NCBI GenBank assembly: GCA_022826665.1
Contig: JAJDUK010000005.1
Span: 55,262 to 119,261, forward strand
Source of the DNA: Alphaproteobacteria bacterium
GTDB lineage: Bacteria; Pseudomonadota; Alphaproteobacteria; UBA828
Length of the DNA stretch: 64,000 nucleotides
Reading direction: 5' to 3'
The notes beneath the pieces are model-generated. The model made no database searches, was not told the DNA's origin, and saw nothing but the letters and a program-made list of their open reading frames with translations. Positions within the stretch are counted from its first letter, which is position 1. Each line of letters opens with the position of its first letter. A program made the position numbers and the translations under genes. Shown piece by piece: positions 16,858 to 39,025 of this stretch.

Positions 16858-16934
16858 TGGCGCGCCCGGCAGGACTCGAACCTGCGACCCCAAGCTTAGA
16901 AGGCTCGTGCTCTATCCGGCTGAGCTACGGGCGC
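16858..16934 (-). tRNA. tRNA-Arg (anticodon UCU)
   Basis: The reverse complement folds as a canonical cloverleaf. Acceptor GCGCCCG/CGGGCGC, D-arm GCTC/GAGC, anticodon stem CGAGC/GCTTG with loop CTTCTAA (anticodon TCT), T-arm GCAGG-TTCGAGT-CCTGC, encoded CCA. Confidence 0.85.
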
Positions 16935-17576: not shown

Positions 17577-18015
17577 GTGTGGATTCGTCGATCCCGCAGG
17601 ATCTAGCGGTCCAAACAGCCTCATTCGATTTGGCCCCACCCTCACAGTCCAAATTGGCTTTGACACAGGATATTCTCCTGGGAGTCCTCCCAATTTGCCG
17701 TCAACAGAATTTCACGCGCTCGTTGATACAGGGGCGCTGAGTAGCTGCATTGATTCTACTGTGGCGGCGGCATTGCAATTGCCTATTGTTGACAAGCAAA
17801 AGGTAGCAGGCGTTCATGGTAGTGCAGACGTTAATGTTCACTTGGCGCAAATCTATGTACCTGCACTAGATTTGACGACGCATGGGAGATTCTCGGGAGT
17901 GCACCTTCACGCAGGTGGCCAACCTCACAGCGCTCTTATTGGACGGACTTTTCTTCGATATTTCACCATGATTTACGATGGGGGTACCGGCTCAGTTACA
18001 CTGTCCCGCTCTTAG
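17563..18015 (+). CDS. retropepsin-like aspartic protease domain protein (clan AA)
   Basis: 150-aa ORF with HALVDTGALSSCID (D-T/S-G-A aspartyl protease signature) followed by a hydrophobic flap region. Confidence 0.55.
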   Translation: MPSVECGFVDPAGSSGPNSLIRFGPTLTVQIGFDTGYSPGSPPNLPSTEFHALVDTGALSSCIDSTVAAALQLPIVDKQKVAGVHGSADVNVHLAQIYVPALDLTTHGRFSGVHLHAGGQPHSALIGRTFLRYFTMIYDGGTGSVTLSRS

Positions 18016-19374: not shown

Positions 19375-19580
19375 AGGAGGCTGCGCGGAACCGGACCTGC
19401 GCTATCATGCGGCGCCGACAGGGAGAGAACTCCGGGCTAGCGCACATCAAGTCCTTCTGTGGCGTTTGCTGTCCTCTCCTGCCGCAGATAATATCCAACG
19501 TAATCAGTAGGATATCTCCAAACGACGATTCTTGCAGTCACCCGAAAGCTCCGCTAGTCTCATTCATAACGTGGGACAGA

Positions 19581-20753
19581 ATGTGGAACAGACACTTGGC
19601 CAAGCAGCTCACCGCCGCCTTCGTGCGCACCGTCAACACCCCGGGCAAGTACCACGACGAGCATGGGTTGATCCTGCGTGTCGTCCTCTCCCAGCGCAAG
19701 CAATGGATCTCGAAATCCTGGGTCCAGCGCCTCGTCATCCACGGCCGGCGCCGCGACCTCGGTCTCGGGGCCTATCCGCTCGTCGGGTTGGCCGATGCGC
19801 GCGAACGCGCCCTGGACAACCGCCGCATTGCCCGTTCCGGCGGAGACCCGCGCGCACGGCCCGCCGCCGCCGCGCCAACCTTCGAGGAGGCCTTCGAGGC
19901 CGTCCTCTCCGTGAAGGCCCCGGCATGGAAGAGCCCGACTTCGCAGGTTTCATGGCGCCAGACGATGCGCCTCTACGTCTTCCCGCACATCGGAAGCCGG
20001 GGCGTCGACACCCTCACCACCAGCGACATGCTCCTGGTGCTCACGCCGCTGTGGAACGATAAGCCGCCCACCGCCAAGCGGGTGCTGCAACGCATGAGTT
20101 CGGTGTGCCGGTGGGCGATCGCCGAGGGGTACCGCAACGACGACCCGACGGCGAACGTGACGAGCGTCCTGCCCAGGCACAAGGGTGAGGAGAGACACCA
20201 TGAGGCGATGCCGTACGTGCAGGTCGGCGCGTTTCTTGTACGCCTGCGAGACGCGGCGGTTCCGCTACCGCGACGGCTGGCACTGGAGTTTCTCACCCTG
20301 ACCGCGGCGCGCACGAGCGAAGTGCGGCTGATGACCTGGGACGAGGTGGACACGGACGCCCGGACATGGACGGTGCCCGCGGCGCGGATGAAGATGATGC
20401 GGGAGCATCGGGTGCCGCTCGCCGAGCGCGCGGTGGCAATTCTCGATGAAGCGCGCGGGCTTCCCCGCCACGGCTCCCGGTGGGTGTTTCCGGGCACCGG
20501 CGGCGCGGAGTTGAGTCAGATGGCGCTGCTGCGCACCATGCGCAGGCTGGACGAGGAAGCGGCCACGCCGCACGGGATGCGCTCGGCGTTTCGTGATTGG
20601 TGTGGCGAGCAGTCCGACGCACCGCACGCGGTGATCGAGGCCGCCCTTGCGCATGTGGTGCGCAACAAGGCCGAGGCCGCCTACGCGCGGTCGGACCTGT
20701 TCGAGCGGCGCCGAGTGTTGATGGAGCAATGGGCGGCGTACCTCTGTCCATGA
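19581..20753 (+). CDS. int: tyrosine-type site-specific integrase (P4/CP4-57 family)
   Basis: ATG at 19581 inside ORF 19362..20753. Catalytic region TAARTSEVRLMTWDE, HGMRSAFRDW (H-x-x-R) and C-terminal Tyr region. Confidence 0.85.
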   Translation: MWNRHLAKQLTAAFVRTVNTPGKYHDEHGLILRVVLSQRKQWISKSWVQRLVIHGRRRDLGLGAYPLVGLADARERALDNRRIARSGGDPRARPAAAAPTFEEAFEAVLSVKAPAWKSPTSQVSWRQTMRLYVFPHIGSRGVDTLTTSDMLLVLTPLWNDKPPTAKRVLQRMSSVCRWAIAEGYRNDDPTANVTSVLPRHKGEERHHEAMPYVQVGAFLVRLRDAAVPLPRRLALEFLTLTAARTSEVRLMTWDEVDTDARTWTVPAARMKMMREHRVPLAERAVAILDEARGLPRHGSRWVFPGTGGAELSQMALLRTMRRLDEEAATPHGMRSAFRDWCGEQSDAPHAVIEAALAHVVRNKAEAAYARSDLFERRRVLMEQWAAYLCP

Positions 20754-22447: not shown

Positions 22448-24052
22448 CTAAATCCCGATTCTCTTGCTCAGGCTCAGGTAGTTTCGACCGTCTTTGCGCC
22501 GGTATCGCAAGTCGTCGACATACGTGCGCACCAGATGCAGGCCGAGGCCGTCCACCACCGTTTCTTCCTGTATCGTGTCCGGACCCGGCTGGAACATGAG
22601 GGTATCGGGATCCAGCTCCCGGCCGTCATCCTCGAAGCGGATTGCGAGGCTGCGGGATTCCTCGTTCATCTGAAGGTGGACGTCGATCCGCTGCGTGTCG
22701 GCATCGTCATGGCCATGCTCCACCATGTACATCAGTGTCTCCTCCAAACAGAGTTGTATCTGGAACCGGTCCTGTTGCGGCAGCCCGTGCCGGTCGGCGA
22801 AACCGTCCATCGCCTTCGCGACCCGTTCCAGTTCCCCGCGGCCGTTGCGCACGACCAGGCTCAAGCCTGGGGCCGCTTCCGGGGATCCGTCCCGGCCACT
22901 CGCGGCTGTCGACGGCCCCTCGCGGTCCCCTTCCGTTCGGACACCTGGCCGCTGGGCATCGGACGGCCCGTCGGCTCGCACCAACGCGCTCAACGCCGCG
23001 ACATCGATCGCCGGTGTAGTCGACTTGGGTGGCCAGCTCCGGTCCCCGGCCTTTACGACGAGGCTTCTGACCGCTTTCCTCAAGTCGGCCACAAGAGCCA
23101 ACTGCTGCAGCGTGTCCAATGTCTGCGCATGCTCCGGCAGGCACAGGTGCCGCCAGAGCATCTGATAGGACAGGACGTCATCGCCGGCGAAGTCGAAGAT
23201 ATCCATCGGCGAGGCCGGATCTTCCGGCGAGAGCCCCGCGGCCCGGAGCAGGCAGGCGAGCGCCCCGCGGGTTATCCGGTCTTCCTCGAACCCGTCTTCC
23301 GTTCTGTGCAAGGCGCCCAACACGGCGAAGTAGCCCGAGTTCAGTGGCTGGCTGAAGCTCCACAGCGGTCGCGTGGGGTTGGTCAGGTAGCGCCGCTCGC
23401 CGCCCCGGTGAGGGCGCAGCAGGGCGGCGTTGCGGTGGGGAAAGCGGTCGAACAGAAGCAGGGTCTCGGCGTGCTCTATCGCGGCCTTGACGAACGACCA
23501 GCCGACGACCTGGTTGACCCTTCGCTGGTCGGGCGGCGCAGCGGCGATGAGGTCGGCACTCATGCGCGCCGTTTTCTCGACGCAGAGCTCTTGCAGCTTC
23601 AAGTCCTCCGCGTGACCCAGAGGAAAATACATCCATATGCGCTCGATAACGTTGTAGTGCGCAAACTCCCGATCGGTCTCGCAGGCTTGCCGGGAAATCG
23701 AAGCGGTCACGGGATCGTTCGCGTAGGCCAGAGCCGTGCCGCGATAGACGCTTCGCGGGAATTGGTCGAGGACGATCAACTTCGCCAGAATGCCCTTCGG
23801 AGTGTCCCAGACCGGGTCGCCGAAAAAACGGTCCACCCCCTCTCGGTGCATCTGCTCGCACCATTCGCGCTGAACCCGAAGATCGTTCGGATCCAGGGTG
23901 CTTCTGGTGAACGGTCCGACCCGCCACCGTCGCATCGCCTGCTGCCAGTTCTCGCGGGAAGCATCGGCCGGCGTGCGCAGGCGACCGAGCCAGAAATCCA
24001 GCACCGCCTCCGGAGAGCGCTCCGCAATACGGACATGGTCGTCAGCGCCCAT
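22448..24052 (-). CDS. DUF924 domain fused to RsbW/SpoIIAB-like anti-sigma serine kinase (HATPase_c_2-like) domain
   Basis: Start at MGADDHVRIAERSPEAVLDFWLG (frame arithmetic). N-terminal half has the DUF924 block LIVLDQFPRSVYRGTALAYANDP. C-terminal 140 aa has CLEETLMYMVEHGH, RFEDDGRELD and GLGLHLVRTYVDDL resembling N, G1 and G2 boxes. Confidence 0.55.
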   Translation of the reverse strand: MGADDHVRIAERSPEAVLDFWLGRLRTPADASRENWQQAMRRWRVGPFTRSTLDPNDLRVQREWCEQMHREGVDRFFGDPVWDTPKGILAKLIVLDQFPRSVYRGTALAYANDPVTASISRQACETDREFAHYNVIERIWMYFPLGHAEDLKLQELCVEKTARMSADLIAAAPPDQRRVNQVVGWSFVKAAIEHAETLLLFDRFPHRNAALLRPHRGGERRYLTNPTRPLWSFSQPLNSGYFAVLGALHRTEDGFEEDRITRGALACLLRAAGLSPEDPASPMDIFDFAGDDVLSYQMLWRHLCLPEHAQTLDTLQQLALVADLRKAVRSLVVKAGDRSWPPKSTTPAIDVAALSALVRADGPSDAQRPGVRTEGDREGPSTAASGRDGSPEAAPGLSLVVRNGRGELERVAKAMDGFADRHGLPQQDRFQIQLCLEETLMYMVEHGHDDADTQRIDVHLQMNEESRSLAIRFEDDGRELDPDTLMFQPGPDTIQEETVVDGLGLHLVRTYVDDLRYRRKDGRNYLSLSKRIGI

Positions 24053-24509
24053 GTCTCGATTGTCCCATCTCGCCCGACAGGCCCATCGACCGGCGCAACC
24101 TAGGGGGAAACCCGGTCGCGCCGCTATCCTCCCAAGTGGGAGGTTTCGTTCGAAAGGGGGGTCAAAAAAACTCGGCCCGAACGATGTTCCTGCGAGATTT
24201 TTCGGTGTGGCGGGGCGGCGACGGCGCGCCGGCATGGCCCAGTGCCAGCGCGGCCAGGGTCAGGTTCTCCAGCACATCGGCCGCCGCCATCGCGAGCGGC
24301 AGAAGATAGAGCGGCGCGGCGCGCCGCCACAGTCGGACCAGCAGGATCGTCAGCAGCCGGTCGTAGGCGGTCCGCCTGCTGTTCCCGACCGGCTGCTGCA
24401 AGAGCGAGATGCTGACCCTGCGCTGGTGGGGGTCGATCTCGAATTCGGCGAGCTCCATCTCGCTGCAGCCTAGACCGGCCCTCGCGCGGACCTGCTGCCA
24501 CCGACGGCG

Positions 24510-24866: not shown

Positions 24867-25436
24867 CCGGCGGCGCGCATTGACCGGATTGGTCTCGGGC
24901 CGCGGCATCGGCTGCTTGTCCCGGACGGCCCCGCGTCGGACACGGCTCTACATGTACGCAATACCGTCGCGCGTCAGATTGATGACCTTCTCGATGTTTC
25001 CCTCGTCAAGTTTGGAAAGGCGCGATTCCGGCATCCCCAGGGCGGCCGCCAATTCGCTCCTTCGCACGATTGTTGTTCGGCGCGCATGTTGGGCGCCGAT
25101 CGCCGTAGTAAAGCGTTGATTTGCTTCGATTCCGAGGGGTCAAACTTCGACGCCGAACAACAGTCGGCGGCCATCATTGATGCCAAATTTCCTTCGGCCT
25201 CGCCGCCGGCCGGCAAGGTCAAGGAGGCAGGGCGGCCCAATTCTTCGTCACGCCCGGAAGATGCGCCATGTCCGGTCCCAACGCGTTTGCAAGGCTCCAC
25301 GAAGCCTGAATCAGTGGAATCGAAATCACGCTGACCCCCGACGACATGGACCTGCTATTCGGCGCAAGTCCTTTTGTTCTGGGGTATTTCCTTCTATACA
25401 AACCCTCAGGCGATCTAGTCGCGAAGAGGACGTGTC

Positions 25437-25988
25437 ATGAAGCCAGCAGTGGCCGTTGTCGATTGGTATGGGCCATACACTCTTGAAGAGGCACGAACCG
25501 CCACCCCAGACTTTGGGGATGGCATCTACATGGCCACCGGAGCATGCAAGTATCAGCGCGCCGTACGGCCTCAGTATTTGGGAATAACATCAAGTCTTTC
25601 GTCAAGACTAAACGGAGACCATCATAAGTTGTCACTGGTCACTCGAGAGCAGGAACTATGGCTAGGGGAAATCGCCAGTTATAGACGGCCTGGTAGGAAG
25701 ACAAAAGCTACCGATAGAATGCTTGACTTGGCTGAATGGGCGCACATCTACTTTCTACAGCTACCCCTCAACGAGAAAAAAAGAGCACAACCTCCAGATT
25801 ATCCGATTACGGTATACAATCGGTGGTGGCGCAACGATTATGCAACTCCACATCGCCGACGTCCACATCAACGATGGCCCGACCTCATCGATTTTGTTGA
25901 CTGCGATTACCCGGCGAAAGTTGTCTGGTTTGGACGGCGTCAGGTCATAAGGCCCGTGCTTGACTTCAAGAACTCACATGTAGTTTGA
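25437..25988 (+). CDS. hypothetical protein (183 aa), first gene of low-GC island
   Basis: Clean ORF in the low-GC segment. No recognisable motif. Confidence 0.4.
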   Translation: MKPAVAVVDWYGPYTLEEARTATPDFGDGIYMATGACKYQRAVRPQYLGITSSLSSRLNGDHHKLSLVTREQELWLGEIASYRRPGRKTKATDRMLDLAEWAHIYFLQLPLNEKKRAQPPDYPITVYNRWWRNDYATPHRRRPHQRWPDLIDFVDCDYPAKVVWFGRRQVIRPVLDFKNSHVV

Positions 25989-26073
25989 AGTCCGTGCTAG
26001 GCGCACTCCACCGCCTTCAGCCGCTCTACATGCGTAGAGGAGATGATCACACATCCAGTCCAAGAACTGAGCT

Positions 26074-26583
26074 CTATGTATTCAGTACGTTCATGCCACT
26101 GGCTGTTTCCATGACCAAGGCCACATGCTCGAGAAATTTGCGTTGCGCATTGTCGGCTAAGTCCACGTGAGTTGTGTCATCACCTACCGTCATATCCACC
26201 GATCCAGTTGCGATGTCGACCTCCACCGTGCCGCCGATCGTCGGGTGTTCTTGAAGGGCCTTGCGTATTCGAATGTTAGTATCTTGCGATCGCCCGGATT
26301 TGCGAAATTGACTAAACCTGGGCCGCAACTCGACCGTTTCTCCTACATAACACTTCGTACGCCCTTCACCGTAAAGGTGGAACCTGTATAGACCGGTCTC
26401 ACGCGTAGTCTCTGGAAACGCTGGGTCGCCCTTGTCGTCCCATGTGATGCGACCGATGCGTCGCCATCGTACCTCGACCGAAAATCGTATCGACTCAATT
26501 CCCGTTACCACCATCTCAGTCGCTGTTGTTCCGATCATCGCAGTTGCTCCGTGACCTCCCATCTGTTGATGATGGCACACCAT
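26074..26583 (-). CDS. GIY-YIG-like nuclease candidate
   Basis: GLYRFHLYGEGRTKCYVGETVELRPRFSQF resembles GIY-(x10)-YVG followed by the conserved Arg-x3-F helix of GIY-YIG domains. Last gene of the dcm operon; start may be MIGTT at 26538. Confidence 0.4.
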   Translation of the reverse strand: MVCHHQQMGGHGATAMIGTTATEMVVTGIESIRFSVEVRWRRIGRITWDDKGDPAFPETTRETGLYRFHLYGEGRTKCYVGETVELRPRFSQFRKSGRSQDTNIRIRKALQEHPTIGGTVEVDIATGSVDMTVGDDTTHVDLADNAQRKFLEHVALVMETASGMNVLNT

Positions 26584-26616
26584 ACTTACGCGCCCAGCGC
26601 CAGCTCCAATACGTTC

Positions 26617-27669
26617 TCACCGCTCATCACCTTGGTCATCAAGATAGCGATGAATTGCCCGTGCATGATGCTCTGCGAACTTCGGCGGGAACGCATTTCC
26701 AATCATTTGTGCTGCTGGATATCTCCCCCGGGAAAGGTCGAATCTATAGCTTTTAGGGAAACCCTGAAGCAGAGCTGCTTCTCGCAATGTAATAGCTCTA
26801 TCTTTTTCCGGGTGTAAGAATCGCCCTTTCGAAGGATTAATGCATCCTCCAGTTATAGTCGGTGCTTCCTTCCTCCATTCCATACGACCATACACATCCC
26901 AAAATCCCTCTAACCTCTTGTGACATTCCAGCTGGTCATCAACGGGCAAGTCCGCTCTACTGCCCCCATCCTTGGGTATGCGGCAAATCAATTCGTAAAC
27001 CTTATGCGCTCGCCTCACTTTGTAATTGTGCGCTGGATCATTCGATTTCTCTGGCGCTGGCAACTTTCGTATAGCTTCAGACACTGTTCTGCGCCGTGAG
27101 GGGCAAGCAAATGGAGGCAATCCCTTAAGGCCTCCCAACAAAAGCAAGCGACGTCGCCGCTGCGGTACACCGTACCGTGCGGCATCAAAGACATCCACAC
27201 CAGTACGGTAATCTAGACAATGAAGTTCGCTCCTTAGCCGCTCCAATCTCTCGTCACTCATGAGAGCAGGTACGTTCTCCATCATAATGGCTTTCGGCCG
27301 AAATACCCTAACGAACCGAACAAACTGGAACACCAGCTCGTTTTGTGGATCGTTTGCGTCCCTCGCTCCATTCAGAGTGCGCAAGGTCGAATATCCTTGG
27401 CAAGGAGGGCAACCCGCTATGAGATCCATCTCCCCGGCTCTTATGCCAAGTACTTTCATCAGTTTTCGCGGCTTGATTGTCGTAATGTCACACTGGAACA
27501 TTCGGGTGTTTCGGTGGTTCTTACGATAGGTTGACGCAGCCAAGGGATCGTTATCGATCGCTGCCACCACGTCGAAGCCAGCTCGACGAAGACCGAGCGA
27601 CAGCCCGCCACAACCTGCAAATAGATCTACCGCTCGCCGTTCCGCCTTCTCGTATTGGAACGATCGCAT
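26617..27669 (-). CDS. DNA (cytosine-5)-methyltransferase
   Basis: All C5-MTase motifs in order: FAGCGG (I), GCPPCQGYS (IV), MENV (VI), QRRRR (VIII), IGNAFPP (X). Start codon overlaps the upstream gene stop. Confidence 0.9.
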   Translation of the reverse strand: MRSFQYEKAERRAVDLFAGCGGLSLGLRRAGFDVVAAIDNDPLAASTYRKNHRNTRMFQCDITTIKPRKLMKVLGIRAGEMDLIAGCPPCQGYSTLRTLNGARDANDPQNELVFQFVRFVRVFRPKAIMMENVPALMSDERLERLRSELHCLDYRTGVDVFDAARYGVPQRRRRLLLLGGLKGLPPFACPSRRRTVSEAIRKLPAPEKSNDPAHNYKVRRAHKVYELICRIPKDGGSRADLPVDDQLECHKRLEGFWDVYGRMEWRKEAPTITGGCINPSKGRFLHPEKDRAITLREAALLQGFPKSYRFDLSRGRYPAAQMIGNAFPPKFAEHHARAIHRYLDDQGDER

Positions 27670-29438
27670 TAATCGACCCTTCCCACAAAGTCCAAACCCA
27701 CCCGAGACAGTGAAGCCCCCAGTTTGTGCAGCAGATTCAATGCATACTCGTAGCGCAGCTGACCGACAACTCGCACTTCTTGTTCCACAAAGCTAAGATT
27801 ACCGTTCGCTGATCTCGTCGACCCTATGGTCAACATTCTTGTGCTAGCAGGGTCGAGAGAAAATAGTCCCTTATTCTTGGCGTAAACAAAGCTCAAAACG
27901 GGCTGGGCATTTCTTTGACTGGTAAACAGATATGACCTATTCTCGCGCCCGTCCAGGTTCAAGAACACACAGCGTCCTTCATTTATTTCATCTGGCCTTG
28001 GCACCGCGCGTGTATCTCTGTGCAGCTTTACCGCGATGAACGGCAGCCACTCCCCGAAGCGGTCACGACGTTCAGCTCCGCCTTGACCAGGTACCAAGTC
28101 GCAGGCCGGGCTCAAACACACCCAGTAATCATCGCCACTCTGAAAGACATGTCCAGTAGTTAAGTGACGTCCTCCGGGGGGTCTGCTGCATGCGAGTACG
28201 TTGTGCTCGATCAATGCTGTCGTTTTTTCCGATTGTTCAGTGAGATCAACCTGAAAGCGTCTATTGCACACTTGTTTGCTGTTCTCACCGTTTGAGTTTT
28301 CAAATTGCACCAGTTCATCGGCGAAGTCACTGACACTTGGGATCACCTCATCAATAAGCAGCTCTGCGTGCCATTTCACGCTTTCTGAAATGTATTGAAG
28401 GCGCACGTCACTGCTCGCGTCCAAGAGCCTGCTGTACCAATAGGCAAGTGCACGGCGTCGAGCAAGAACGTGCTCCTGAACAGGAACACCTTGTTCGTCT
28501 ACCTCCGCCCGCAACCGCGACAAAAGCAGCCGAGAAGGCGTTGGATTCCATCCCGAAAGCGCTTGACTCAGTCGTTGCAAGAGATCGTCGTGCTCTCCCT
28601 TACGAGCAAACGCTATGAAAATGGAACCACTCTGAATCCAATAAGGGTCGGATAGAGCCCACGCAAACTCTCCAACATAGTTGCTGTGCAGGCTCTCCGC
28701 CAATGCCCTTTCCCGCATGACAAGCGCGTAGATTAGCAACGTGCGACGATCATCCTCATCCAAGCCGACGTCGACGCAAAGTGCGTGAAATTCCGCAAAG
28801 GGCTGCTCCGCCGCCTCCATCGTGCCAAACACTTGACCAGGCTCTCGACGGTATTCGAGATATGCCTCCGTCCCAATGCTAGCCAAGAGCGCGTCTTCGA
28901 ACCCCTCCCGTTCGAGCTCCGCTTCATCCAACAGACGCTGGGCTGCTTCGGCGCCAGCACCGCCGCGGGTTAGGTCCTGAGATGCCGAGAGAAGACCGAT
29001 GCGTACCTGCTGAAACACTTCATCCAGCTCTAGGGATGTGTAAATGATTACCAAGTTGAAGTGCTGATTGCCGGCGACATTGCGCAAAATTTCGATTGCT
29101 CTTGAGCCGTCTTCTCGCCGAGTCCGGTCTAACTCATAGTCCAGGACTAACAAGTCCGATTGATGCAAATGCCGTGCAACCTCCCTCGCGCCCTCCTCAG
29201 GTACGTTCTGTCCGTCGTGAATATCCAGTAGGAGCGGCGTATCTCTATCCCGAAACTGCCTTATCAGCTCTCGTACCCGATCTGGCGATTCGCGCCATCT
29301 CTTTTCAACACCTTGGTCCGATTCTGGAGCAGCCAATATGTCGCTATACGTCGGATAGTCATCATCTACGATGAGAACCGAACGAATGGGATCAACATAG
29401 GCTTTTCCTATGAACGCATCGTAGGACTCACACATCAC
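27669..29438 (-). CDS. receiver-like (CheY-fold candidate) N-terminal domain protein with large uncharacterised C-terminal domain
   Basis: N-terminus IRSVLIVDDDYP...TPLLLDIHDGQ...DLLVLDYEL...NLVIIYTS resembles beta1 acidic pair, phospho-acceptor Asp and beta4/beta5 of REC domains, but is degenerate. C-terminal 430 aa has no recognisable motif. 11-nt overlap with the upstream GHKL gene. Confidence 0.5.
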   Translation of the reverse strand: MMCESYDAFIGKAYVDPIRSVLIVDDDYPTYSDILAAPESDQGVEKRWRESPDRVRELIRQFRDRDTPLLLDIHDGQNVPEEGAREVARHLHQSDLLVLDYELDRTRREDGSRAIEILRNVAGNQHFNLVIIYTSLELDEVFQQVRIGLLSASQDLTRGGAGAEAAQRLLDEAELEREGFEDALLASIGTEAYLEYRREPGQVFGTMEAAEQPFAEFHALCVDVGLDEDDRRTLLIYALVMRERALAESLHSNYVGEFAWALSDPYWIQSGSIFIAFARKGEHDDLLQRLSQALSGWNPTPSRLLLSRLRAEVDEQGVPVQEHVLARRRALAYWYSRLLDASSDVRLQYISESVKWHAELLIDEVIPSVSDFADELVQFENSNGENSKQVCNRRFQVDLTEQSEKTTALIEHNVLACSRPPGGRHLTTGHVFQSGDDYWVCLSPACDLVPGQGGAERRDRFGEWLPFIAVKLHRDTRAVPRPDEINEGRCVFLNLDGRENRSYLFTSQRNAQPVLSFVYAKNKGLFSLDPASTRMLTIGSTRSANGNLSFVEQEVRVVGQLRYEYALNLLHKLGASLSRVGLDFVGRVD

Positions 29439-32391
29439 CGAACTTTGCTCCCCGAAACGTGATCAGAAAGTTTGCTCCGTCCAAAGGCATCCTCGCCTTG
29501 TTGGCCTCGTACTTTATTCGGTGACCTCCTGCCGACAAATTCGCCCGGCATAGATACAGTCCCACTCCGCGTCCCCCTCGTGCCTTTCGTGTGAAAAACA
29601 AGGTGAAGAGGTTGCTCACATCTTCTTCATCCACTCCGGGACCATTGTCAGAAACAACCACATCATCTTCGATAACGCCAAAAATGATCCGGCGCTTTTT
29701 TACCTCAGTGCTGGCCAGCCAATAGATGCTGTTGTTCACTAAGTTGATGAACACAGGATAAAGCCGGGACTGCTGATCAAATACCTGCAAACGAAGAAAC
29801 TCATCGGTGGCCTCCAACGCAATTTGGTTTCGCGCCAAAATCGGCTTAAAGAAGTCCGAGGTATATCGAAATACGTCTTCACCTGTGATCCATTTCTGAA
29901 TCTTTTGGCCCGCTAATCGGAGAGGTGACAGGAACCGCAGCTGGTCGGTAAGCCCTTCGTATGCAAATTCGATATCCTTCGCGGCTTTGCTTTCCCGGAT
30001 ATCTCCCGGCAAACGACGCAACCCATCAGCGAGAATGTCGTCGAAGGCTTGAAGATCATGTGCGACGATTTCCACCGCTATGCCAAGCTGCGCCAAGCTA
30101 TTCAGCCTGTCCAGCTCCGCGCGCAATTCGCCCACTTCGTCCGCGTCGAACGTCGCCAAATGCAGCAGGTCTACACTTTCCCCCAAGCTCTCGAGCGTTG
30201 TTATATATGGCAGCAATATATCCCGGTTCTCTTTGTCAAACCTCTCCTTCAATTTATCCATCGCGGCGGAAGCTTCCAAATACGGCATCGCTTGCGCGCG
30301 CACTCGATCCAGCAGCGGTTCGGCTTCTCGAGTGAAAGCGTCCATCCTCTCCTTGACCAGTTCTCTGACGCGTTCGTACTCTGCGCGCTGTAATCTCTCC
30401 GCTTCCTTACCCCAATTATCCAATCGCCGTTTGAGTTCTCGGCCTTGTCGGGTCAATTGTTCAAGGAGTAAATCCTCTGGCCTTGCCGGGTCGACACGTT
30501 CGATCTGCTCTTCCAACTTTTCTCGCAACGCGGCGACCGCGGTTCGGAAAGCACGATAGTTCCGTCGATACTCGACATATTGGCTCTCCAAGCGCGCGCT
30601 CAACTTCTTCGGCTTCACCGGTAGTGTGAAGTCAGAGAGGCGCCCTACAAACGCATCGAGGTCTTCCTTTGCTGGTCCAATTTGCCTTTCTCTCGTTATA
30701 TCAAGTGATTCCACATAGCTCTCAATCTCGTGAAGGACCGCCGGTAGCTCTTCCGCAAAGTCTTTCAAATTCGCGCGAAACGCGCGCGCCTGCCTCTTGT
30801 GAAGCTTCTCGCGTTCTTTATTTGCCTTTTGACGACGATTGTCCTCCCTGATGTCCGGTAAGAAGTCTCCGCGAAAACTGGACTCGGAACCAAAGTACAA
30901 CCTAGCGGATCTCTGCAAAACATTCGCAACGATTTCCCGAAACGTTTTTGCGGCATGGTTGTCTAGAAGCCCTTCTCTCCCCGCCTTGTCCTTGAGGTTC
31001 GGATTAGTCTCGCGTCCGATTGAGAGACGCCCGAACATTTGTCTGTGATTCCAGAATTCACGACCGGCACTCTTGCTGCGGCGTGACTCGATTTCGAAAA
31101 AATCGTTATCTGTACGGCCATAGGGAAGAACACGAAGACCGTCTCGAAAAACCATGAAGCCAGAGTACTTGTTCGCGAGATCGCGATAGCGGTTGAAGTC
31201 CGCTTCGGTGTGCGTGCTGTTTATGGCGGTGAATTCCATTGACGCGATATAGAGGCCGAATGGGCCCACCCGGGTGTCCGCGCGGGTCGGAATTGTTAGA
31301 TCGCGCGGTGGCGGAATGACGCATTCGTCCGTCAGGTCTTTTCCGAAAGCTCTAATGGAGCCTGTGAATACGCCGTCTTCTCCCACCCGCCCCACAATGC
31401 GATGCTCCATGTCATCAATTTGCCGTCTGTCGAACTGTCTCTCGGAACCGACAACTAAATCCGCTGTTCCATTTGTCCAGGCGCGTACGGCATACGAAAA
31501 CTGCGGATCGCTGTTCGACAATGCCTTATCCGAGGGATCTACGAAAGGGTCCACAAAACTCGAAAGCGTCTCGAAGAAACGATCACGCGTCGCCTGTTGC
31601 GCAACCTCACTGTAGTTCCGCTCGATCTGTGCCCGTAAATCATAGTTGAGGCCGGATATCAGTAGCGCCGTACCCCTATCCGACGCATCTGTCCACACAG
31701 GCCAAGGCTCAATGTGTTCCGGTTGGAAAGGCAGCTCAAGAATGTTGGCGATAATGTCTTCGGAGCGAGCGACCTGTATTCCACTTTCCTTCAGTCCGTC
31801 AATCTCCGACCAAGCCTCGGATATTCGAGCAGATCGCCCGGGTTCTCTCCCGCCCTTAACATTTTCCGACAGAGTCTTGGCCAGTAGCGGCAATTCTACG
31901 AATAAATCAGCTCTGTCTTTGAAATCCACAAGAGGAATTTGAATGTCAGAAAGATTGAGAAAGGGATTCTCAAACAATCGCCAATCGATCAGCGCCGCGA
32001 TGAAAGGCGAATCTTTTCTCTTGGACACCAGCAGCAACAAGGGACCCAAGTTCGCACACGAAAGGCGCCCGATTCCCTTTTGGCCTTGGCGTGGCCGAGG
32101 CTTCAGGCCGTTGCGATCCGCTCGACTTCTCGGATCTGCAGTGGCCTTCGCCTCAGTGCCCACCACCAGCCAGTGTCGCTGGAATTCCTCCCCGCTCATT
32201 CCATGCCCGTCGTCCACGATCGCCGCGACAGGCTCCGGGTCCTTGAAGAGGTGGAGTTCGACCATTCTCGCGTAGGCGTCATACGCATTCTTCCAGAGCT
32301 CGGATATCGCCGTCGGGCAATCCGCGATCTGCTCCCGACCCAGGTGGTCTACGGTCCGTGCCCGAGTCTGAAATGCGATTCCTTGAACCAT
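29428..32391 (-). CDS. dual Bergerat-fold ATPase: N-terminal MORC/MutL-like GHKL domain plus C-terminal histidine-kinase transmitter (HisKA-like H-box + HATPase_c)
   Basis: N-terminal ELWKNAYDA (ExxxNxxDA), DDGHGM, GQKGIGRLS. C-terminal IVAHDLQAFDD (H-box-like), INLVNNSIYW (N box), SDNGPGV (G1), LFTLFF (F), GGRGVGLYLCR (G2). Confidence 0.65.
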   Translation of the reverse strand: MVQGIAFQTRARTVDHLGREQIADCPTAISELWKNAYDAYARMVELHLFKDPEPVAAIVDDGHGMSGEEFQRHWLVVGTEAKATADPRSRADRNGLKPRPRQGQKGIGRLSCANLGPLLLLVSKRKDSPFIAALIDWRLFENPFLNLSDIQIPLVDFKDRADLFVELPLLAKTLSENVKGGREPGRSARISEAWSEIDGLKESGIQVARSEDIIANILELPFQPEHIEPWPVWTDASDRGTALLISGLNYDLRAQIERNYSEVAQQATRDRFFETLSSFVDPFVDPSDKALSNSDPQFSYAVRAWTNGTADLVVGSERQFDRRQIDDMEHRIVGRVGEDGVFTGSIRAFGKDLTDECVIPPPRDLTIPTRADTRVGPFGLYIASMEFTAINSTHTEADFNRYRDLANKYSGFMVFRDGLRVLPYGRTDNDFFEIESRRSKSAGREFWNHRQMFGRLSIGRETNPNLKDKAGREGLLDNHAAKTFREIVANVLQRSARLYFGSESSFRGDFLPDIREDNRRQKANKEREKLHKRQARAFRANLKDFAEELPAVLHEIESYVESLDITRERQIGPAKEDLDAFVGRLSDFTLPVKPKKLSARLESQYVEYRRNYRAFRTAVAALREKLEEQIERVDPARPEDLLLEQLTRQGRELKRRLDNWGKEAERLQRAEYERVRELVKERMDAFTREAEPLLDRVRAQAMPYLEASAAMDKLKERFDKENRDILLPYITTLESLGESVDLLHLATFDADEVGELRAELDRLNSLAQLGIAVEIVAHDLQAFDDILADGLRRLPGDIRESKAAKDIEFAYEGLTDQLRFLSPLRLAGQKIQKWITGEDVFRYTSDFFKPILARNQIALEATDEFLRLQVFDQQSRLYPVFINLVNNSIYWLASTEVKKRRIIFGVIEDDVVVSDNGPGVDEEDVSNLFTLFFTRKARGGRGVGLYLCRANLSAGGHRIKYEANKARMPLDGANFLITFRGAKFGDV

Positions 32392-32738
32392 GCCCTCGTT
32401 CCGCGCCCGTCGCCGACCCGATCAGACGGCCCGCTCAATGCCGAACAGACTCCGCACCAACAGCCGAATGAGGCCGACGCCACCACATATAGCATATACT
32501 ACTAAGGATGCCCCAATATGGAGGCGAAGACCGCTCACGGTTCGACGAGCCTTGGGTTCGGCTCCCTCGACATCTCCACTGAATTCGCCCCATCCCGCCT
32601 ACGCTCCAGCCTTCCAGCCACAATTTCAGCAGCCTTGATGCCGGCCTTTTGCTTCCTAGCCTGATTCTTGCCCGTAGTGATCCTCCCCGCTCAAATCCTG
32701 CACTCCCGTGTCCGGTTAGTGCAATATGGCTTCCGCCG
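32392..32738. promoter_or_regulatory. divergent intergenic region between GHKL operon and vsr (inferred promoters)
   Basis: 347-bp non-coding gap between divergently transcribed genes. No motif resolved. Confidence 0.3.
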
Positions 32739-33203
32739 ATGACCGACACAGTCGATCGCAACACCCGTTCTCGCATGATGGCGAGTGTCTCCAGCAAGGA
32801 CACGGCGCCGGAACTCGCTCTGCGTCGGGCACTTCATGCGCTGGGCCTGAGATACCGACTCCATTGTCGGAATCTCCCCGGCACTCCCGATCTGACCTTT
32901 CCTCGCTTCCGAGCCGTCTGTTTCGTACACGGCTGCTTTTGGCACCGCCACCCCCGCTGTCACCGTACGACAGACCCCACCACACGCCCGGAATTCTGGC
33001 ACGCCAAGTTTCAGGCCAACGTGGAGCGTGACCAACGCGCACGACAGCAGCTTCTGGCCGCTGGATGGCGAGTGGCAATCATTTGGGAATGTGCGCTGCG
33101 CAAGGATCGAGCGGAACGTACATCCCACGTGGTGGCCCAATGGCTACACGGCGACGACCGCGAATTCGAAACGCCTCTCTTCGAAACCCGACACCAACAA
33201 TGA
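32739..33203 (+). CDS. vsr: very short patch repair endonuclease
   Basis: ATG at 32739 by frame arithmetic. TPELALRRALHALGLRYRL, FVHGCFWHRH and WRVAIIWECAL are canonical Vsr blocks. Confidence 0.85.
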   Translation: MTDTVDRNTRSRMMASVSSKDTAPELALRRALHALGLRYRLHCRNLPGTPDLTFPRFRAVCFVHGCFWHRHPRCHRTTDPTTRPEFWHAKFQANVERDQRARQQLLAAGWRVAIIWECALRKDRAERTSHVVAQWLHGDDREFETPLFETRHQQ

Positions 33204-33372: not shown

Positions 33373-33560
33373 TCATCGCGCGACGAAACCGGACCATTCT
33401 TCCATCAGCACCCGCCGCCGCTCGAACAGATCCGTCCGGCGATAAGCGGCCTCCACCCGATCGGAATTCACGTGAGCCAAGGCGAGCTCGCAGACTTCGC
33501 GGGGTACGTCGGAGCACTCCGCCGCCCAGTCCCGAAACTGGGACTGGAACCCGTGCAGCC
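33373..33560 (-). pseudogene. P4-type integrase C-terminal fragment (about 60 aa)
   Basis: LHGFQSQFRDWAAECSDVPREVCELALAHVNSDRVEAAYRRTDLFERRRVLMEEWSGF is near-collinear with the C-terminus of the intact integrase at 20590-20750. No upstream part is present. Confidence 0.6.
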
Positions 33561-33566
33561 CGCACG

Positions 33567-34181
33567 TTAGCTCTGCCGACCGAGGTGGCCGAAGTCGATT
33601 TCGTACGGCACACCGGTGAGGTTGGTGAGTGTGACGATGACGCGGAACGGGCTGTCGACGTAGGGACGGGTCAGCCAGCCGGCCGGCAGCGGACCGCCCT
33701 GGAAGGCTGCGGCCGCTTTCGTCGCCTGGCCGATCGCCCTGTCGTTGAACAGCGACTTCAGCGGTTGGCCAGCGGCGATGTCGTTGGTCTCGACGAAGCC
33801 GGCGATGTCCAGTTCCTGCACCCAGGTCTTGTAGAACGGATTGCGGTCCCACTCGACCTCAGACGAGGCGGGCGAGATGTGCGGGAAACCGAAGGCAAGC
33901 GCGCGGGCAAGGATGGCGGCGCACACGCCGCCGCCGGATGCGCCGGCCGCGACACGGATCTTCACGTCGTGGTCGGGCACGTCATCGTCGTTCGTCTTCG
34001 CCACGTACCAAGCGTCCAGCGCCTCGATGAGCTTGTCCAGGAATCCCGCCGTGTAGGCGCCGGCCGAGACCGTGCCGCCCAACACCAGAGCGACCTCGAA
34101 GGTGCCGTCGGGCAGGCTCCGCGTGACGTTGCTTTCCAGGACCCGCAGGATCTCTTTGTTTGTCGGCGCTGGCATCGTCAT
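33567..34181 (-). pseudogene. patatin-like phospholipase, 3'-truncated (lacks catalytic Asp block)
   Basis: Start MTMPAPTNK. Has VLGGTVSAGAY (oxyanion loop), GASGGG (GxSxG) and TNLTGVPYEIDF (TDLxTG block). The ORF ends about 10 aa later, before any DGG/DGA motif, right at the integrase fragment. Confidence 0.55.
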
Positions 34182-34370
34182 TCCCCTTTCGCTGCGTACC
34201 ACCAACTCTACATGGGTACAGGGCTTAACATCAGAGATCACTATCGGATGGAGGCGACTGCCTAGCTTCGCACCCTCGGGCTCGTCACGCTTGGCTGCGA
34301 ATGAGCGATCCACTAACATTCCAACTGAACCAGCCCCCGAGAACAGACGATAAGGCTGAGGTAACCAGTT

Positions 34371-35132
34371 ATGTTGAAGTCTGTCGGTAAGCCACGCCTC
34401 AGGAACGCCCTCAAGAAACTGAGGCGAATTCCATTTAATCGCGAGGATCCCTACAATCTGGCAACGGCACCTGTGGAGATGTTGGAGTTCCTCGCAATGA
34501 TTTCTGGGTTAAAACCAGTTGTACTTATTGGACGGGGATTTGATGATCAGAATTGGATTAGGGGGGTTCAAGATCTCGCTGAGGATATGCACTTGCATGT
34601 GATCGAAGGTCCCAAGTGGGAAGCGATTCCGGAATACAGCGGCTTGCCAAATTGGTTCGCTTTGATAGACCAGAAGAAGCTCTCAGAGAATTCGGTTGTG
34701 TATATTAGCAAATCAAAGTCAATCTCTAAATGTGTTAGGAGAATTGTGGATGCTAGAAGTATTACTATCGAGGAAGAGTCAGCTATCCTTGGTTATCCAA
34801 CATGTTGTGTAAAAGACCATTATTACAAAGCTGAAAGGATGAACAGAGGCTTTAACCTTATGCTGGAGCGGCTCTCTAGTGGTGACAAGTCAGAAATGAT
34901 GCGACTTGTTAGGGAGGACGTACCCATGTCGCCTGAGACTGATGAGGAGATAGAATGCATGAGAGAGGCGACACGCACAGTCGTTGCTCCCTACACGAGC
35001 ATTGTGATGTGTCCTTCCTGCGAAGATGATCAGGATAGTCCAGCTCGTATAGTCTCAAAGAATTACAAGATTCTTGCTGATAGTATCGATCCCCGTCTAG
35101 CGTTAGATATAAACCTTCATCAAAAAGTGTAA
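34371..35132 (+). CDS. hypothetical Cys-rich protein, very AT-rich (foreign)
   Basis: 253-aa ORF with GC about 45% in a 65-70% GC genome. Contains GYPTCCVKDHY and CPSCEDD Cys clusters. No family recognised. Confidence 0.45.
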   Translation: MLKSVGKPRLRNALKKLRRIPFNREDPYNLATAPVEMLEFLAMISGLKPVVLIGRGFDDQNWIRGVQDLAEDMHLHVIEGPKWEAIPEYSGLPNWFALIDQKKLSENSVVYISKSKSISKCVRRIVDARSITIEEESAILGYPTCCVKDHYYKAERMNRGFNLMLERLSSGDKSEMMRLVREDVPMSPETDEEIECMREATRTVVAPYTSIVMCPSCEDDQDSPARIVSKNYKILADSIDPRLALDINLHQKV

Positions 35133-35340: not shown

Positions 35341-35772
35341 TCAGCAGGCTCGTCCAACCGAACCCCGAAGACGCTCGATGTCCTCGCGAAAGGGATCGCG
35401 GCTTTCCGCATCGAAGTCCTCGGGATGCGAATCCATCCAGGCGATCGTGCGCTCGTAATATTCGATCGCCCGTTCGGTTTCGCCGCGCGCTTCGCAGACC
35501 ATCGCCTTACGCATGAGCCAATCGTGCACCTCGGGATAGCGGGTCCTCAGCTGCTCGCACACGGCGTCCGCTTCGTCGAGGCGGCCTTCATCGATCAGGT
35601 TGACGACGCTGTTCGAGAGCCGGTCCAGGTCGGTCTCGGCCCAGTGGTATCCATGTTGCGATGCCGCCGGCGCGGTAGGCACATAGGCGGCGCGGTCGCG
35701 GTCCCAGCAGCAGCGCTTGTACTTCCTGCCGCTGCCACAAGGGCAAGGTTGGTTCCTGCCGATCTTCACCAT
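35341..35772 (-). CDS. SEC-C metal-binding motif protein (YchJ-like)
   Basis: Start [22 protein letters not shown] (SEC-C motif) placed by frame arithmetic inside ORF 35341..36303. Confidence 0.6.
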
Positions 35773-35953
35773 TAACGCCTCGTCGCCGGCATTTCCGGCT
35801 CTCGGACCCCCGATCACATGTAGCCCGCTCGCCGGTCGCCAGCAACATTCCCGACCTTCCGCGGCGCGCCGGCAGGAGGCAGCGGCCGGCCTCTTCCGGG
35901 CGAATTCGGGGACCGGAAAGTGGCCCTCGCGCCACCGCCGGGGAGGCCGACCC

Positions 35954-36769
35954 ATGTCCAGCCGCATCGCCGACATTCTCGTGCCGCCGCGATGCCGGGA
36001 GATGATCCGCGCCGGCGCGCTCATCGCCATCAACACCAGCGGTGGCAAGGATTCACAGGCGATGACCATCCTGCTGTCGCGGATCGTTCCCCGCGACCAG
36101 ATCGTGGCGGTCCACGCCCCGCTCGGCGAGGTCGAGTGGCCGGGTACGATCGAGCATATCGAGGCAACGCTACCCGCCGGCGTGCCGCTCGTCATGGCGC
36201 CGGTTTCGTCCGGCAAGTCGCTGCTCGACCACGTCGAGGAGCGTGGCATGTTTCCAGGAGCCCGCCAAAGATGGTGTACGGCGGCCCTTAAACGGGGACC
36301 CATCGAGCGCGAACTGCGCCGCTATCTGAAGGCTCATCCCCGCTTCGGCGGGCGCCTCGTCAACGCCATGGGCATGCGCGCGGAGGAAAGCCCGGCACGT
36401 GCCAGGAAGGCGCCGTGGAGGCGCAACGACCGGATGAGCGTCGCGGGCCGCGAGGTCTTCGACTGGCTGCCGGTCTTCGACCTCTCCACGGACGACGTCT
36501 TCCGCGTCATCCACGACGCCGGCCAGTCGCCGCACTGGGCCTACGCCGCCGGCATGTCGCGGCTGAGTTGCAGCTTCTGCATCCTGGCGTCCCGCGCCGA
36601 CCTTCGCCGCGCGGCCGAGCTCCGCCCGGCGCTCTACCGCACCTATGTGGAGCTTGAGCGGCGCATCGATCACACGCTCTCGCCGTCGGGCATCCCCCTG
36701 CCGGAACTGACCGGCGTCTCCCCGGCAACCGCCCGCCACGACGACCCGACCGGCCTGAACAGCATCTGA
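35954..36769 (+). CDS. phosphoadenosine phosphosulfate reductase family protein (PP-loop ATPase)
   Basis: ATG at 35954. Has INTSGGKDS (SGGxDS PP-loop). Confidence 0.7.
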
Positions 36770-37958: not shown

Positions 37959-38093
37959 ATGCACTGGTCGGTCACGCACCGCCCGGCGGGGGATGCCCCG
38001 TCGCGCAAGTACGCCGTGCGGGCGCCCAGCCTCGACGCGGCCAGGCGGAAGCTCGCCGCCTTCCTCGACGTCCCCGTGTGGACGCTCCGCTAA
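37959..38093 (+). CDS. small hypothetical protein (44 aa)
   Basis: Short ORF MHWSVTHRPAGDAPSRKYAVRAPSLDAARRKLAAFLDVPVWTLR with a GAAGGAG-like RBS upstream. Sits between MoxR and DUF3150 genes. Coding status unproven. Confidence 0.3.
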   Translation: MHWSVTHRPAGDAPSRKYAVRAPSLDAARRKLAAFLDVPVWTLR

Positions 38094-38110
38094 CCCGAGA
38101 GGAGAACCCG

Positions 38111-39025
38111 ATGGACCTCAACCGCGACGCCATGCTGGTCGGGCTGCACATCGCCGCCTGGTCCGGCCGGCTCTACGACCGCCAGGCGAGCGACCACGTC
38201 GCCGTCGCACACGAAGCGAACACCAGCGCCGGGCGCTACAACAAGCGCCTGCTGCCCAAGGCCGCCTTCGCCGCGCTGACCGCCACCATGAGCGAGGCGA
38301 GGACCAAGCACTATGCCAACTCATTGCCCTGGGACGACAAGGGCGCGCGGCTGCTCACCGTCGCCAACTACGAGCACTACACCGAGCTCATGGACGGCCT
38401 GCGCGAGCGCGTGGTCCGCCAGCGCGCCCGCTTCGTCGAGGATTACGACGACTATATCGACCAGGCCCGGCTCGATTTGGGCAAGCTGTTCCGCATCGCG
38501 GACTACCCCTCGAAGGAAGCGCTCCAGGGCAAGTTCGCGATCCGCTACCGCATTACGCCGGTGCCGGACGCCGAGCACTTCATCGCCCAGCTCGCCCCCG
38601 ACGACACCGAGCGGGTGAAGCGCGACATCGAGCGCCACGTCGAGGAACAGCTCCACGGCGCGGTGGGCGATCTCTACCGTCGCTTCGGCGAAGCCGTCGA
38701 GCGGGTCTCCGAGCGCCTGCGCGAGGACGACGACGGCAAGCCGCTGGTGTTCCGGGACACGATGATCTCGAACATCCGGGATCTGGTGGACGTGGTCCCG
38801 CGGCTCAACATCTTCGGCGACGACGAGCTGGCGAAGCTCTGCGAGCAGGTGAAGGAGAAGATCGCGAGCGTCGAGCCGGACGCGCTCAGACCGTCGAAGA
38901 CCTTCGATCCCGCAGCCCGCGCGCAGGTCAAGCGCGACGCGGACGCGCTCGCGGAGAAGTTCGCGGGGTATTTCGGAGGGCGTGCCGAAGAGCCCGCCGC
39001 CGAGCCGGTGCGGGAGGCCGCCTGA
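38111..39025 (+). CDS. DUF3150 domain protein
   Basis: Start MDLNRDAMLVGLHIAAWSGRLYD. Fits the length and context of DUF3150 proteins found with MoxR/VWA pairs. Confidence 0.5.
   Translation: MDLNRDAMLVGLHIAAWSGRLYDRQASDHVAVAHEANTSAGRYNKRLLPKAAFAALTATMSEARTKHYANSLPWDDKGARLLTVANYEHYTELMDGLRERVVRQRARFVEDYDDYIDQARLDLGKLFRIADYPSKEALQGKFAIRYRITPVPDAEHFIAQLAPDDTERVKRDIERHVEEQLHGAVGDLYRRFGEAVERVSERLREDDDGKPLVFRDTMISNIRDLVDVVPRLNIFGDDELAKLCEQVKEKIASVEPDALRPSKTFDPAARAQVKRDADALAEKFAGYFGGRAEEPAAEPVREAA

Follow-up and report, generated by a model that had tools for sequence, protein, structure and literature searches.

A Mobile Locus of C5-Methylase, MORC-like Kinase and Receiver Protein in an Alphaproteobacterium and Its Possible Role as a Phosphorelay-gated Defence or Addiction Module

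Described relatives of the locus

Gene pairs that resemble two-component systems and are linked to C5-cytosine methylases, Vsr endonucleases and paraMORC ATPases were described by Bellieny-Rabelo et al. in 2021 and are the source of the Pfam families HEF_HK (PF19191) and Response_reg_2 (PF19192) (PMC8011034). In that study, which was computational and contained no experiments, the two gene families were linked at 91.6% over 644 regions, the combination of HATPase_c_3, HEF_HK and HATPase_c was the dominant architecture, C5-methylases and Vsr were over-represented beside the two genes, an origin from the paraMORC ATPases of restriction-modification systems was put forward, and the receiver protein had no other known domain (PMC8011034). 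Here we analyze such a pair in a 64,000-nucleotide (nt) stretch of contig JAJDUK010000005.1 from the Alphaproteobacteria bacterium assembly GCA_022826665.1 (hereafter the window), where genes for a 987-residue kinase-like protein, a 589-residue receiver protein and a Dcm-type C5-cytosine DNA methyltransferase lie together opposite a divergent Vsr gene. Judged by its sequence, the locus is a member of the HEF_HK/Response_reg_2 'two-component-like' family, and we give even chances to its being a methylation-guarded, phosphorelay-gated defence or addiction module with these three genes as its core and a toxin-like output.

The agreement with the published module is close: the 'group 1' kinase architecture and the receiver family are shared, the two genes are adjacent or overlap, both proteins are soluble, and a C5-methylase and Vsr are the commonest neighbours in both. 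What differs is the gene order, since kinase, receiver and methylase followed by a divergent Vsr is a minority arrangement. A preliminary description of this DNA had presented the cassette as undescribed and without a match that could be named, which overstated its novelty: the module had been in print since 2021, and a validated defence system uses a homologous sensor. The confident match of the whole cassette to a named system that would have refuted that description was found only in part, as the pair is described and Pfam-named but carries no defence-system name. No model in PADLOC-DB 2.0 for a defence system matched the window proteins or diverse family members, and a copy on a Rhizobium plasmid is annotated generically by RefSeq as 'ATP-binding protein / response regulator receiver domain / DNA cytosine methyltransferase / Vsr'. 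To the published account our analysis adds a three-gene minimal core and, with moderate support, a MazF/CcdB-like fold for the receiver protein's C-terminal domain.

A distant homologue of the kinase is found in Ambrosia, an experimentally validated anti-phage system of Pseudomonas aeruginosa in which all components are required: the XRE regulator AbrR, the N6-adenine methylase AbrA, the sensor kinase AbrB, the receiver AbrC and the type IV HNH nuclease AbrD (bioRxiv 10.1101/2025.09.30.679545). AbrB has 747 residues and a HATPase_c_3...HATPase_c architecture with a coiled coil, and its gene cluster includes members annotated as HEF_HK (10.1101/2025.09.30.679545). In BLASTP against the N-terminal 399 residues of AbrB, the window's kinase gave collinear matches with 34% identity over residues 7-140 (E 6e-16) and 30% over residues 374-477 (E 4e-9), and AbrB matched the kinase gene in 81 of the 84 related loci described below. 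Ambrosia and the present locus are thus both operons of a DNA methylase, a homologous sensor kinase and a receiver. They differ in that Ambrosia has an N6-adenine rather than a C5-methylase, a 209-residue receiver unrelated to the Response_reg_2 protein (hhalign 0.2% for the receiver profile against AbrC), a separate HNH nuclease, an XRE regulator and a sensor of 747 rather than 987 residues; across the window and the 84 loci there is no counterpart of AbrC, of AbrD or of the regulator. MANTIS was rejected as a match on composition (AAA+ ATPase, adenine methylase, PLD-helicase).

With Detocs, which consists of a TPR-sensor kinase (DtcA), a stand-alone buffer receiver (DtcB) and a receiver-PNP effector with ATP-nucleosidase activity (DtcC) and has no methylase (Rousset et al. 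2023, bioRxiv 10.1101/2023.01.24.525353), the likeness is one of logic only, from the His of a kinase through the Asp of a receiver to an effector fused to it that does not bind DNA and arrests the cell. The parts themselves were not found: PADLOC gave no match at all for the receiver protein and none to Detocs for the kinase, and there was no PNP or TPR domain in Pfam scans and no extra recurrent receiver gene in the 84 loci. The MORC and paraMORC proteins (Iyer, Abhiman & Aravind 2008, PMC2292703), the BbrUII/HgiDII enzymes and the GHKL-Shedu protein VcSduA (PMC12137116) share with the kinase an N-terminal MutL-type GHKL domain with a catalytic Glu, occur in cytosine methylase/Vsr neighbourhoods and have an ATPase proposed to gate a nuclease or effector. 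Members of that group carry, or partner with, recognisable nucleases (PD-(D/E)xK, DUF4263) or helicases, whereas the present kinase joins its GHKL domain to a histidine-kinase transmitter and has no recognisable nuclease domain.

A conserved three-gene core

The kinase gene (29428-32391, minus strand) overlaps the receiver gene (27669-29438, minus; 589 residues, or 588 from the second Met) by 11 nt, and the receiver gene overlaps the methylase gene (26617-27669, minus; 350 residues) by 1 nt, an overlap of methylase start and receiver stop that suggests translational coupling. A small open reading frame (ORF) follows after 33 nt on the same strand, and Vsr is transcribed divergently on the plus strand from an ATG (32739) that lies 347 bp from the kinase start. 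Pfam, NCBIfam and PADLOC scans of all eight ORFs turned up no named defence system. The ORF scan reproduced the layout given in the preliminary description, namely four packed minus-strand genes in a low-GC island, a divergent Vsr and a 347-bp intergenic region; the two overlaps also stood, and the gap it gave as 34 nt is 33 nt, with the small ORF probably starting at M16 or M24.

Both DNA-modifying and repair components are canonical, as in the classical Dcm-Vsr pair. The methylase matched PF00145 (1.4e-60), TIGR00675 and PADLOC MTase_II (2e-83) and contains the motifs FAGCGG, PPCQ, ENV, QRR and GNA. Vsr (32649-33203, including a TTG-extended upstream start) matched TIGR00632 (146.2 bits against a cut-off of 97.85), PF03852 (1.6e-28; 98.8 bits against 27) and the PADLOC Vsr model, and conservation at the protein level extends to the 30 codons 5' of its ATG.

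Homologues of the receiver protein number more than 992 (clusters at 90% identity), nearly all of them full-length at 575-606 residues. For comparison of gene neighbourhoods we fetched 80 genome loci, which span Alpha-, Beta- and Gammaproteobacteria, Desulfobacterota, Binatia, Dadabacteria, one metagenome-assembled genome of Paceibacterota (Candidate Phyla Radiation) and one cyanobacterium, and combined them with four close metagenomic relatives to give 84 loci. In tBLASTn searches of the 80 loci, the kinase gene stood by the receiver gene in 79, a C5-methylase was present in 75 and Vsr in 43. When all ORFs lying within 4.5 kb were clustered without bias across the 84 loci, the recurrent families were the receiver (84), the kinase (82), the C5-methylase (78), Vsr (44) and an integrase (9), and the other clusters were antisense shadows of these five. 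No separate nuclease gene recurred among these ORFs, and since no further real family recurs at all, we conclude that the module has no separate nuclease. The conserved core is a C5-methylase, a kinase and a receiver protein, translationally coupled, with Vsr as a frequent fourth gene.

The methylase lies mostly on the same strand with 4-nt overlaps to the pair, 5' of the kinase gene in ~51 loci and 3' of the receiver gene in ~16, and only the window's own clade shows its order with a divergent Vsr. Synteny of the five genes, about which the preliminary description had asked, is a property of the closest relatives and does not extend across the family. Comparison between arrangements gives identities of 63-64% for the kinases and ~51% for the receivers, whereas the methylases reach only ~35%, against ~70% within an arrangement. 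A methylase identity of 36% beside a kinase identity of 64% indicates that methylases were exchanged while the signalling pair was kept, and this exchange speaks for a pair that can function with any methylase joined to it.

The locus lies on a mobile element and is horizontally acquired. The GC content is 0.536 across 25437-33203 and 0.67-0.70 in the flanks, and the same island holds a P4-type tyrosine integrase gene (Arm-DNA-bind_3, Phage_int_M and Phage_integrase; 19362-20753, plus strand) and an AlpA-like gene. Close relatives of the cassette adjoin TraG/TrwB and TrwC/TraI genes and insertion sequence elements, relatives are also found on conjugative elements, and more distant ones lie on three plasmids and in two Escherichia coli prophages.

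The two prophage copies, in Escherichia phage phi467 (locus L097; LN997803.1, 34758-38226) and Enterobacteria phage CP-1639, are 'group 2' pairs beside intA. Their kinase, of 572 residues, has no N-terminal GHKL domain. Its partner is a Response_reg_2 protein in which the A-x-C-D-L-V-P and R-I-G-x-D motifs are retained at 22% identity, and no methylase is visible in the record.

The co-occurrence of Dcm, Vsr and a MutL-type GHKL domain would also suit a very-short-patch repair or epigenetic module with no role in conflict, in which the MutL-like ATPase aids Vsr at Dcm-derived T:G mismatches and the pair signals DNA damage; a functional link of this kind is on record, as MutL stimulates Vsr in E. 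coli (PMC2292703). We regard this as highly improbable, as about half of the loci have no Vsr, the module is mobile, low in GC and patchy in its distribution, and the homologous sensor of Ambrosia acts in phage defence.

The kinase, the receiver protein and their proposed action

All three Pfam domains of the 987-residue protein scored above their gathering thresholds: an N-terminal MutL/MORC-type GHKL ATPase, HATPase_c_3 (PF13589; residues 27-130, nt 32002-32313; 5e-16, 59.3 bits), the DHp-like (dimerization and histidine phosphotransfer) domain HEF_HK (PF19191; residues 768-825, nt 29917-30090; 25.2 bits against a cut-off of 24.1), and HATPase_c (PF02518; residues 874-965, nt 29497-29772; 1e-13, 51.9 bits) with its N-, G1- and G2-boxes. 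The protein thus has two Bergerat-fold domains and a DHp-like domain. Among 29 kinase homologues, all of which have the identical three-domain architecture and no further Pfam domains, the residues E31 and N35, the D60xGxG and GxxGxG (G103-G108) motifs, H778 and the N, G1 and G2 boxes are invariant; H778 (nt 30058-30060) is the predicted phospho-accepting His of HEF_HK. The N-terminal domain has the ATP-binding motifs I-III and the catalytic Glu by which MORC and paraMORC proteins are recognized, and a profile of the kinase run against PDB sequences retrieved only histidine kinases at the C-terminus and MutL/PMS2 N-terminal domains at the N-terminus. A middle region (~137-510), including an 'RDGLRVLPYG...NPNLKDKAGREGL' block, is conserved, with no profile match for residues 130-520, and a coiled coil extends over ~520-760. 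At H+4, HEF_HK has no Thr/Asn phosphatase motif, as would suit a one-way trigger. The protein is best read as a soluble MORC-like GHKL ATPase fused to a histidine-kinase transmitter, which bears out what the preliminary description had said of its two ATPase domains and of their fusion.

The GHKL domain is most similar to that of the BbrUII/HgiDII-type restriction enzymes (NF050001, 1.6e-16; PADLOC REase_II, 1e-8), the methylase is near-obligatory and translationally coupled, as in restriction-modification systems, and paraMORC GHKL ATPases partner nucleases in such contexts (PMC2292703). The kinase and receiver proteins might therefore form an ATP-dependent restriction complex that cleaves unmethylated DNA, with a nuclease hidden in kinase residues 130-520, in receiver residues 155-420 or in the C-terminal barrel of the receiver protein, and with phosphotransfer licensing cleavage rather than host killing; the large conserved regions that bear no assignment leave room for it. 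We consider this rather unlikely. No nuclease family was found by Pfam in the kinase, in the receiver protein or in any of the 29 kinase homologues, the match to the restriction enzyme family spans the ATPase domain only (profile positions 8-119 of 659), and no invariant constellation of the PD-(D/E)xK, HNH or GIY-YIG type is obvious in the alignments. The swapping of ~35%-identical methylases between close pairs would also be awkward for a sequence-specific nuclease unless the methylase provides recognition.

The N-terminal part of the 589-residue protein is a Response_reg_2 domain (PF19192; residues 18-150, nt 28989-29387; 79.5 bits against a cut-off of 27), in which D25/D26, the predicted phospho-acceptor D100 (nt 29139-29141) and T134 are invariant across 57 homologues. 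It is followed by a helical region (residues 154-417) and a beta-rich C-terminal domain (residues 420-583, nt 27690-28181), so that the large output region of the preliminary description, ~430 residues, was correctly seen and is conserved. The C-terminal domain has no Pfam match, and a profile of the whole receiver protein run against PDB sequences gave nothing useful. Its invariant residues (G429, C446-D447, P450, R562-x-E564-Y565 and R579-x-G-L) are kept down to 22-27% identity, and the C446-D447 and R579-x-G elements persist in the E. coli prophage homologue.

Two confident models bear on this output domain, with predicted local distance difference test (pLDDT) values of 83.5 and 86.1; the latter is that of residues 385-589 modelled separately, with a predicted template-modelling score (pTM) of 0.82. 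The order of strands and helices in the model is that of MazF: two strands, a short helix, more strands, a long hairpin and a C-terminal helix. The comparison with MazF, Kid and CcdB concerns the concept of a latent toxin tied to DNA modification; there is no relation at the sequence level, the catalytic residues are not conserved, and there is no separate antitoxin gene, the domain being instead fused in cis to the receiver and the helical region. We consider the MazF/CcdB-like barrel a moderately supported resemblance of fold, not membership of the family, and a toxin-like character of the output domain is possible.

The pair might instead be a transcriptional or regulatory two-component system that senses infection or stress and controls expression of the linked methylase and of any nuclease nearby, which is also the working model put forward for Ambrosia. 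A part in regulation, tied to restriction-modification systems, was suggested by Bellieny-Rabelo et al. (PMC8011034), and in Ambrosia, whose AbrB is homologous to the kinase, D60 of the receiver AbrC is essential and reporters of the cluster are induced on infection (10.1101/2025.09.30.679545). The divergent intergenic region (32392-32738) is unusually conserved (86% in an alignment of the four closest relatives, whose proteins are 70-90% identical) and probably holds divergent promoters, and an invariant AT-rich block in it, TAGTATATGCTATATGTGGTGG (tandem TATATG, at ~32481-32503), could be an operator, or a promoter. A simple scan of the region found no consensus sigma-70 match, and a promoter/terminator scan did no better than shuffled sequence. 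We judge the regulatory explanation unlikely: the receiver protein is unrelated to AbrC and no DNA-binding domain was detected in it with Pfam, most loci are without a nuclease gene to regulate, and a conserved 430-residue output with a beta-barrel is atypical of a transcription factor.

The domains, the catalytic residues, the tight co-conservation of the three genes and the mobile setting are seen in the sequences; for the defence or addiction module we infer which way the signal runs, what the sensor responds to and what the output domain does, as follows. The methylase would mark host DNA as self, and the N-terminal GHKL ATPase together with the conserved middle region of the kinase would monitor the state of the DNA or its methylation, or an infection cue. 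A signal would lead to autophosphorylation of H778 by the C-terminal kinase domain and to phosphotransfer to D100 of the receiver, and phosphorylation would free the C-terminal MazF/CcdB-like beta-barrel to act as an effector, with growth arrest or nucleic-acid attack as the outcome, amounting to abortive infection or post-segregational killing. Vsr would serve only to repair T:G mismatches from deamination of 5-methylcytosine, and the two GIY-YIG-like ORFs at the 3' flank would be passengers. A latent toxin held in check has a precedent in PrrC-EcoprrI, where an RNase toxin is coupled to a restriction-modification system.

A defence function, against phages or plasmids, is plausible because the kinase is homologous to the validated AbrB, its GHKL domain is like that of restriction enzymes, the cassette lies on a low-GC mobile island, and relatives lie on mobile elements. 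Of the earlier proposal of phosphorelay-gated restriction or abortive infection, then, the defence or abortive role is still the best reading and the part given to a GIY-YIG nuclease falls away.

One close relative bears on the role of the receiver protein. In locus L081 (3518-8594), copies of a UPF0236-family transposase gene lie within and beside the receiver gene, which is now in three pieces, and the kinase, methylase and small ORFs are still intact. The putative effector seems to have undergone a natural knockout here, and the loss of the receiver with kinase and methylase left intact fits the receiver as the dangerous, dispensable part.

Several points weigh against the proposed module. 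The canonical receiver Lys is not evident in the 589-residue protein. For the C-terminal domain, Foldseek of the model against the PDB gave nothing significant, a domain profile against PDB sequences found no match at E<=10, hhalign against a hand-made mini-profile of MazF-type sequences gave a probability of 0.3%, and the catalytic Arg/Thr pair of MazF is without an obvious counterpart; it is because of these missing signals and of invariants unlike the MazF pair that we claim resemblance of fold only. The invariants that are present (C446-D447, R562-x-E-Y) suggest a different chemistry or a mere interaction surface, a winged-helix-like element is possible at receiver residues ~215-297, and a nuclease could hide in the ~260 receiver and ~400 kinase residues that have no assignment. 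The authors of the Ambrosia study favour transcriptional control by the receiver (10.1101/2025.09.30.679545), and we found no experimental study of the HEF_HK/Response_reg_2 family.

In its most specific form the proposal would make the trio a self-contained immune or addiction system, in which the MORC-like ATPase reads the 5-methylcytosine self-mark or the occupancy of the methylase and passes the signal through the phosphorelay to a cis-fused MazF/CcdB-like toxin, with no dedicated nuclease and no free antitoxin. We offer this form tentatively and think it somewhat improbable; if true, it would be the first direct link of DNA-methylation self-recognition to two-component signalling with a toxin effector. 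If the module is a defence system at all, it would be one in which an epigenetic self-mark is wired to a phosphorelay instead of a nuclease, and it would account for the observation, made long ago, that MORC-like ATPases accompany methylases. Pfam names for this widespread family date from 2021, and it offers handles in H778, D100, E31, C446/D447, R562/E564/Y565 and the isolated residues 385-589, with the three genes without the small ORFs as the minimal unit.

Small flanking ORFs and the surrounding island

The small ORF 3' of the methylase gene (26074-26583, minus) is 169 residues at its longest, and alignments place its likely start at M16 or M24 (154 or 146 residues), so that the 33-nt gap is not meaningful. 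By eye it carries a GIY-x11-YVG...R...E...N motif, hhalign against a hand-made GIY-YIG mini-profile gave a probability of 63% over 63 columns, and four of ten remote homologues matched PF01541 below threshold at the expected position (15-19 bits against a cut-off of 22.6). The ORF itself has no Pfam, NCBIfam or PADLOC match, not even at E<=10. A GIY-YIG-like character, claimed in the preliminary description, is therefore plausible on motif and sub-threshold homologue hits, with no curated family behind it.

These same features, together with the position of the ORF directly 3' of Dcm on the same strand and its presence in three of the four close relatives, are what would favour the five-gene operon of the preliminary description, in which the GIY-YIG-like protein would be the cognate nuclease of Dcm under control of the phosphorelay. 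A GIY-YIG-like motif is also what the ORF has in common with type II enzymes such as Eco29kI. The distribution of the ORF makes this very unlikely. Three close homologues were found in 5.8 billion proteins, each directly 3' of the same cassette, and a fourth copy is present in L084, but the ORF is missing from the close relative L083 and from all 80 more distant loci, where tBLASTn also found neither the 183-residue ORF described below nor the other flanking ORFs. It is thus not a conserved component and not co-conserved with the methylase. An exhaustive HMMER search put its wider family at 810 clusters, in which the domain stands alone (~140 residues) or C-terminal to DUF7662 in proteins of ~250 residues. 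The genes next to remote members are of various kinds (AlpA, YaaD/ParE-like, toxin-antitoxin-like, a fragment of a KAP NTPase, housekeeping or other unrelated genes) and never a methylase, which is incompatible with a classical cognate restriction enzyme. A role as the cognate enzyme was rejected on this distribution, and because the ORF is restricted to this clade and no methylase adjoins its remote homologues, we take it to be a dispensable passenger.

The ~250-residue proteins with an N-terminal DUF7662 (PF24698) and a GIY-YIG-like domain are numerous (many of P0235-P0361; hundreds of clusters), and some lie by AlpA-like excisionase genes.

Beyond the coordinates of the preliminary description, a convergent ORF of 183 residues (25437-25988, plus) adjoins the cassette in all four close relatives. 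Its family (~180 residues, ~100 clusters) occurs in Lysobacter, Acidihalobacter, a Pseudomonas prophage, Gemmataceae, Campylobacterota and Chloroflexi, and has the invariants G-[IL]-Y...QY[VL]G...R...H...WLGE...E-W-H...LN-K, which are GIY-YIG-like by eye. The family had no Pfam match, its profile gave nothing useful against PDB sequences, and its hhalign match to GIY-YIG was weak (54% probability over 20 columns only). As a cognate restriction enzyme this ORF was rejected as well, its homologues standing alone in Lysobacter, Acidihalobacter and the Pseudomonas prophage, and it is probably also a passenger.

The cassette is flanked on both sides by integrase fragments, in ORFs at 24974-25300 (minus), 33373-33852 (minus) and 33567-34319 (minus), which include a truncated patatin-like ORF; one fragment is a PF00589 piece, and one ORF has a typical P4-integrase C-terminus, 'AHVNSDRVEAAYRRTDLFERRR'. 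These fragments on both sides, with the truncated patatin-like ORF, suggest a decayed mosaic of integrative elements. A scan for direct and inverted repeats found no att-like repeats bounding the cassette or the island. A tRNA-Arg(TCT) gene lies at 16858-16934 (minus), with an aminotransferase gene between it and the P4-type integrase gene, and the GC content dips to 0.56 at 17001-18000. The island also encodes a 595-residue protein (22448-24235, minus) in which DUF924 is fused to HATPase_c_2, an anti-sigma-factor-type GHKL domain, with no obvious link to the cassette. On the 3' side of the island are a Cys-rich ORF of 253 residues without a family (34371-35132, plus), a protein with a SEC-C motif and TPR (35341-36303, minus) and an 812-residue DUF2201 metallopeptidase/VWA-like protein (37993-40431, plus).

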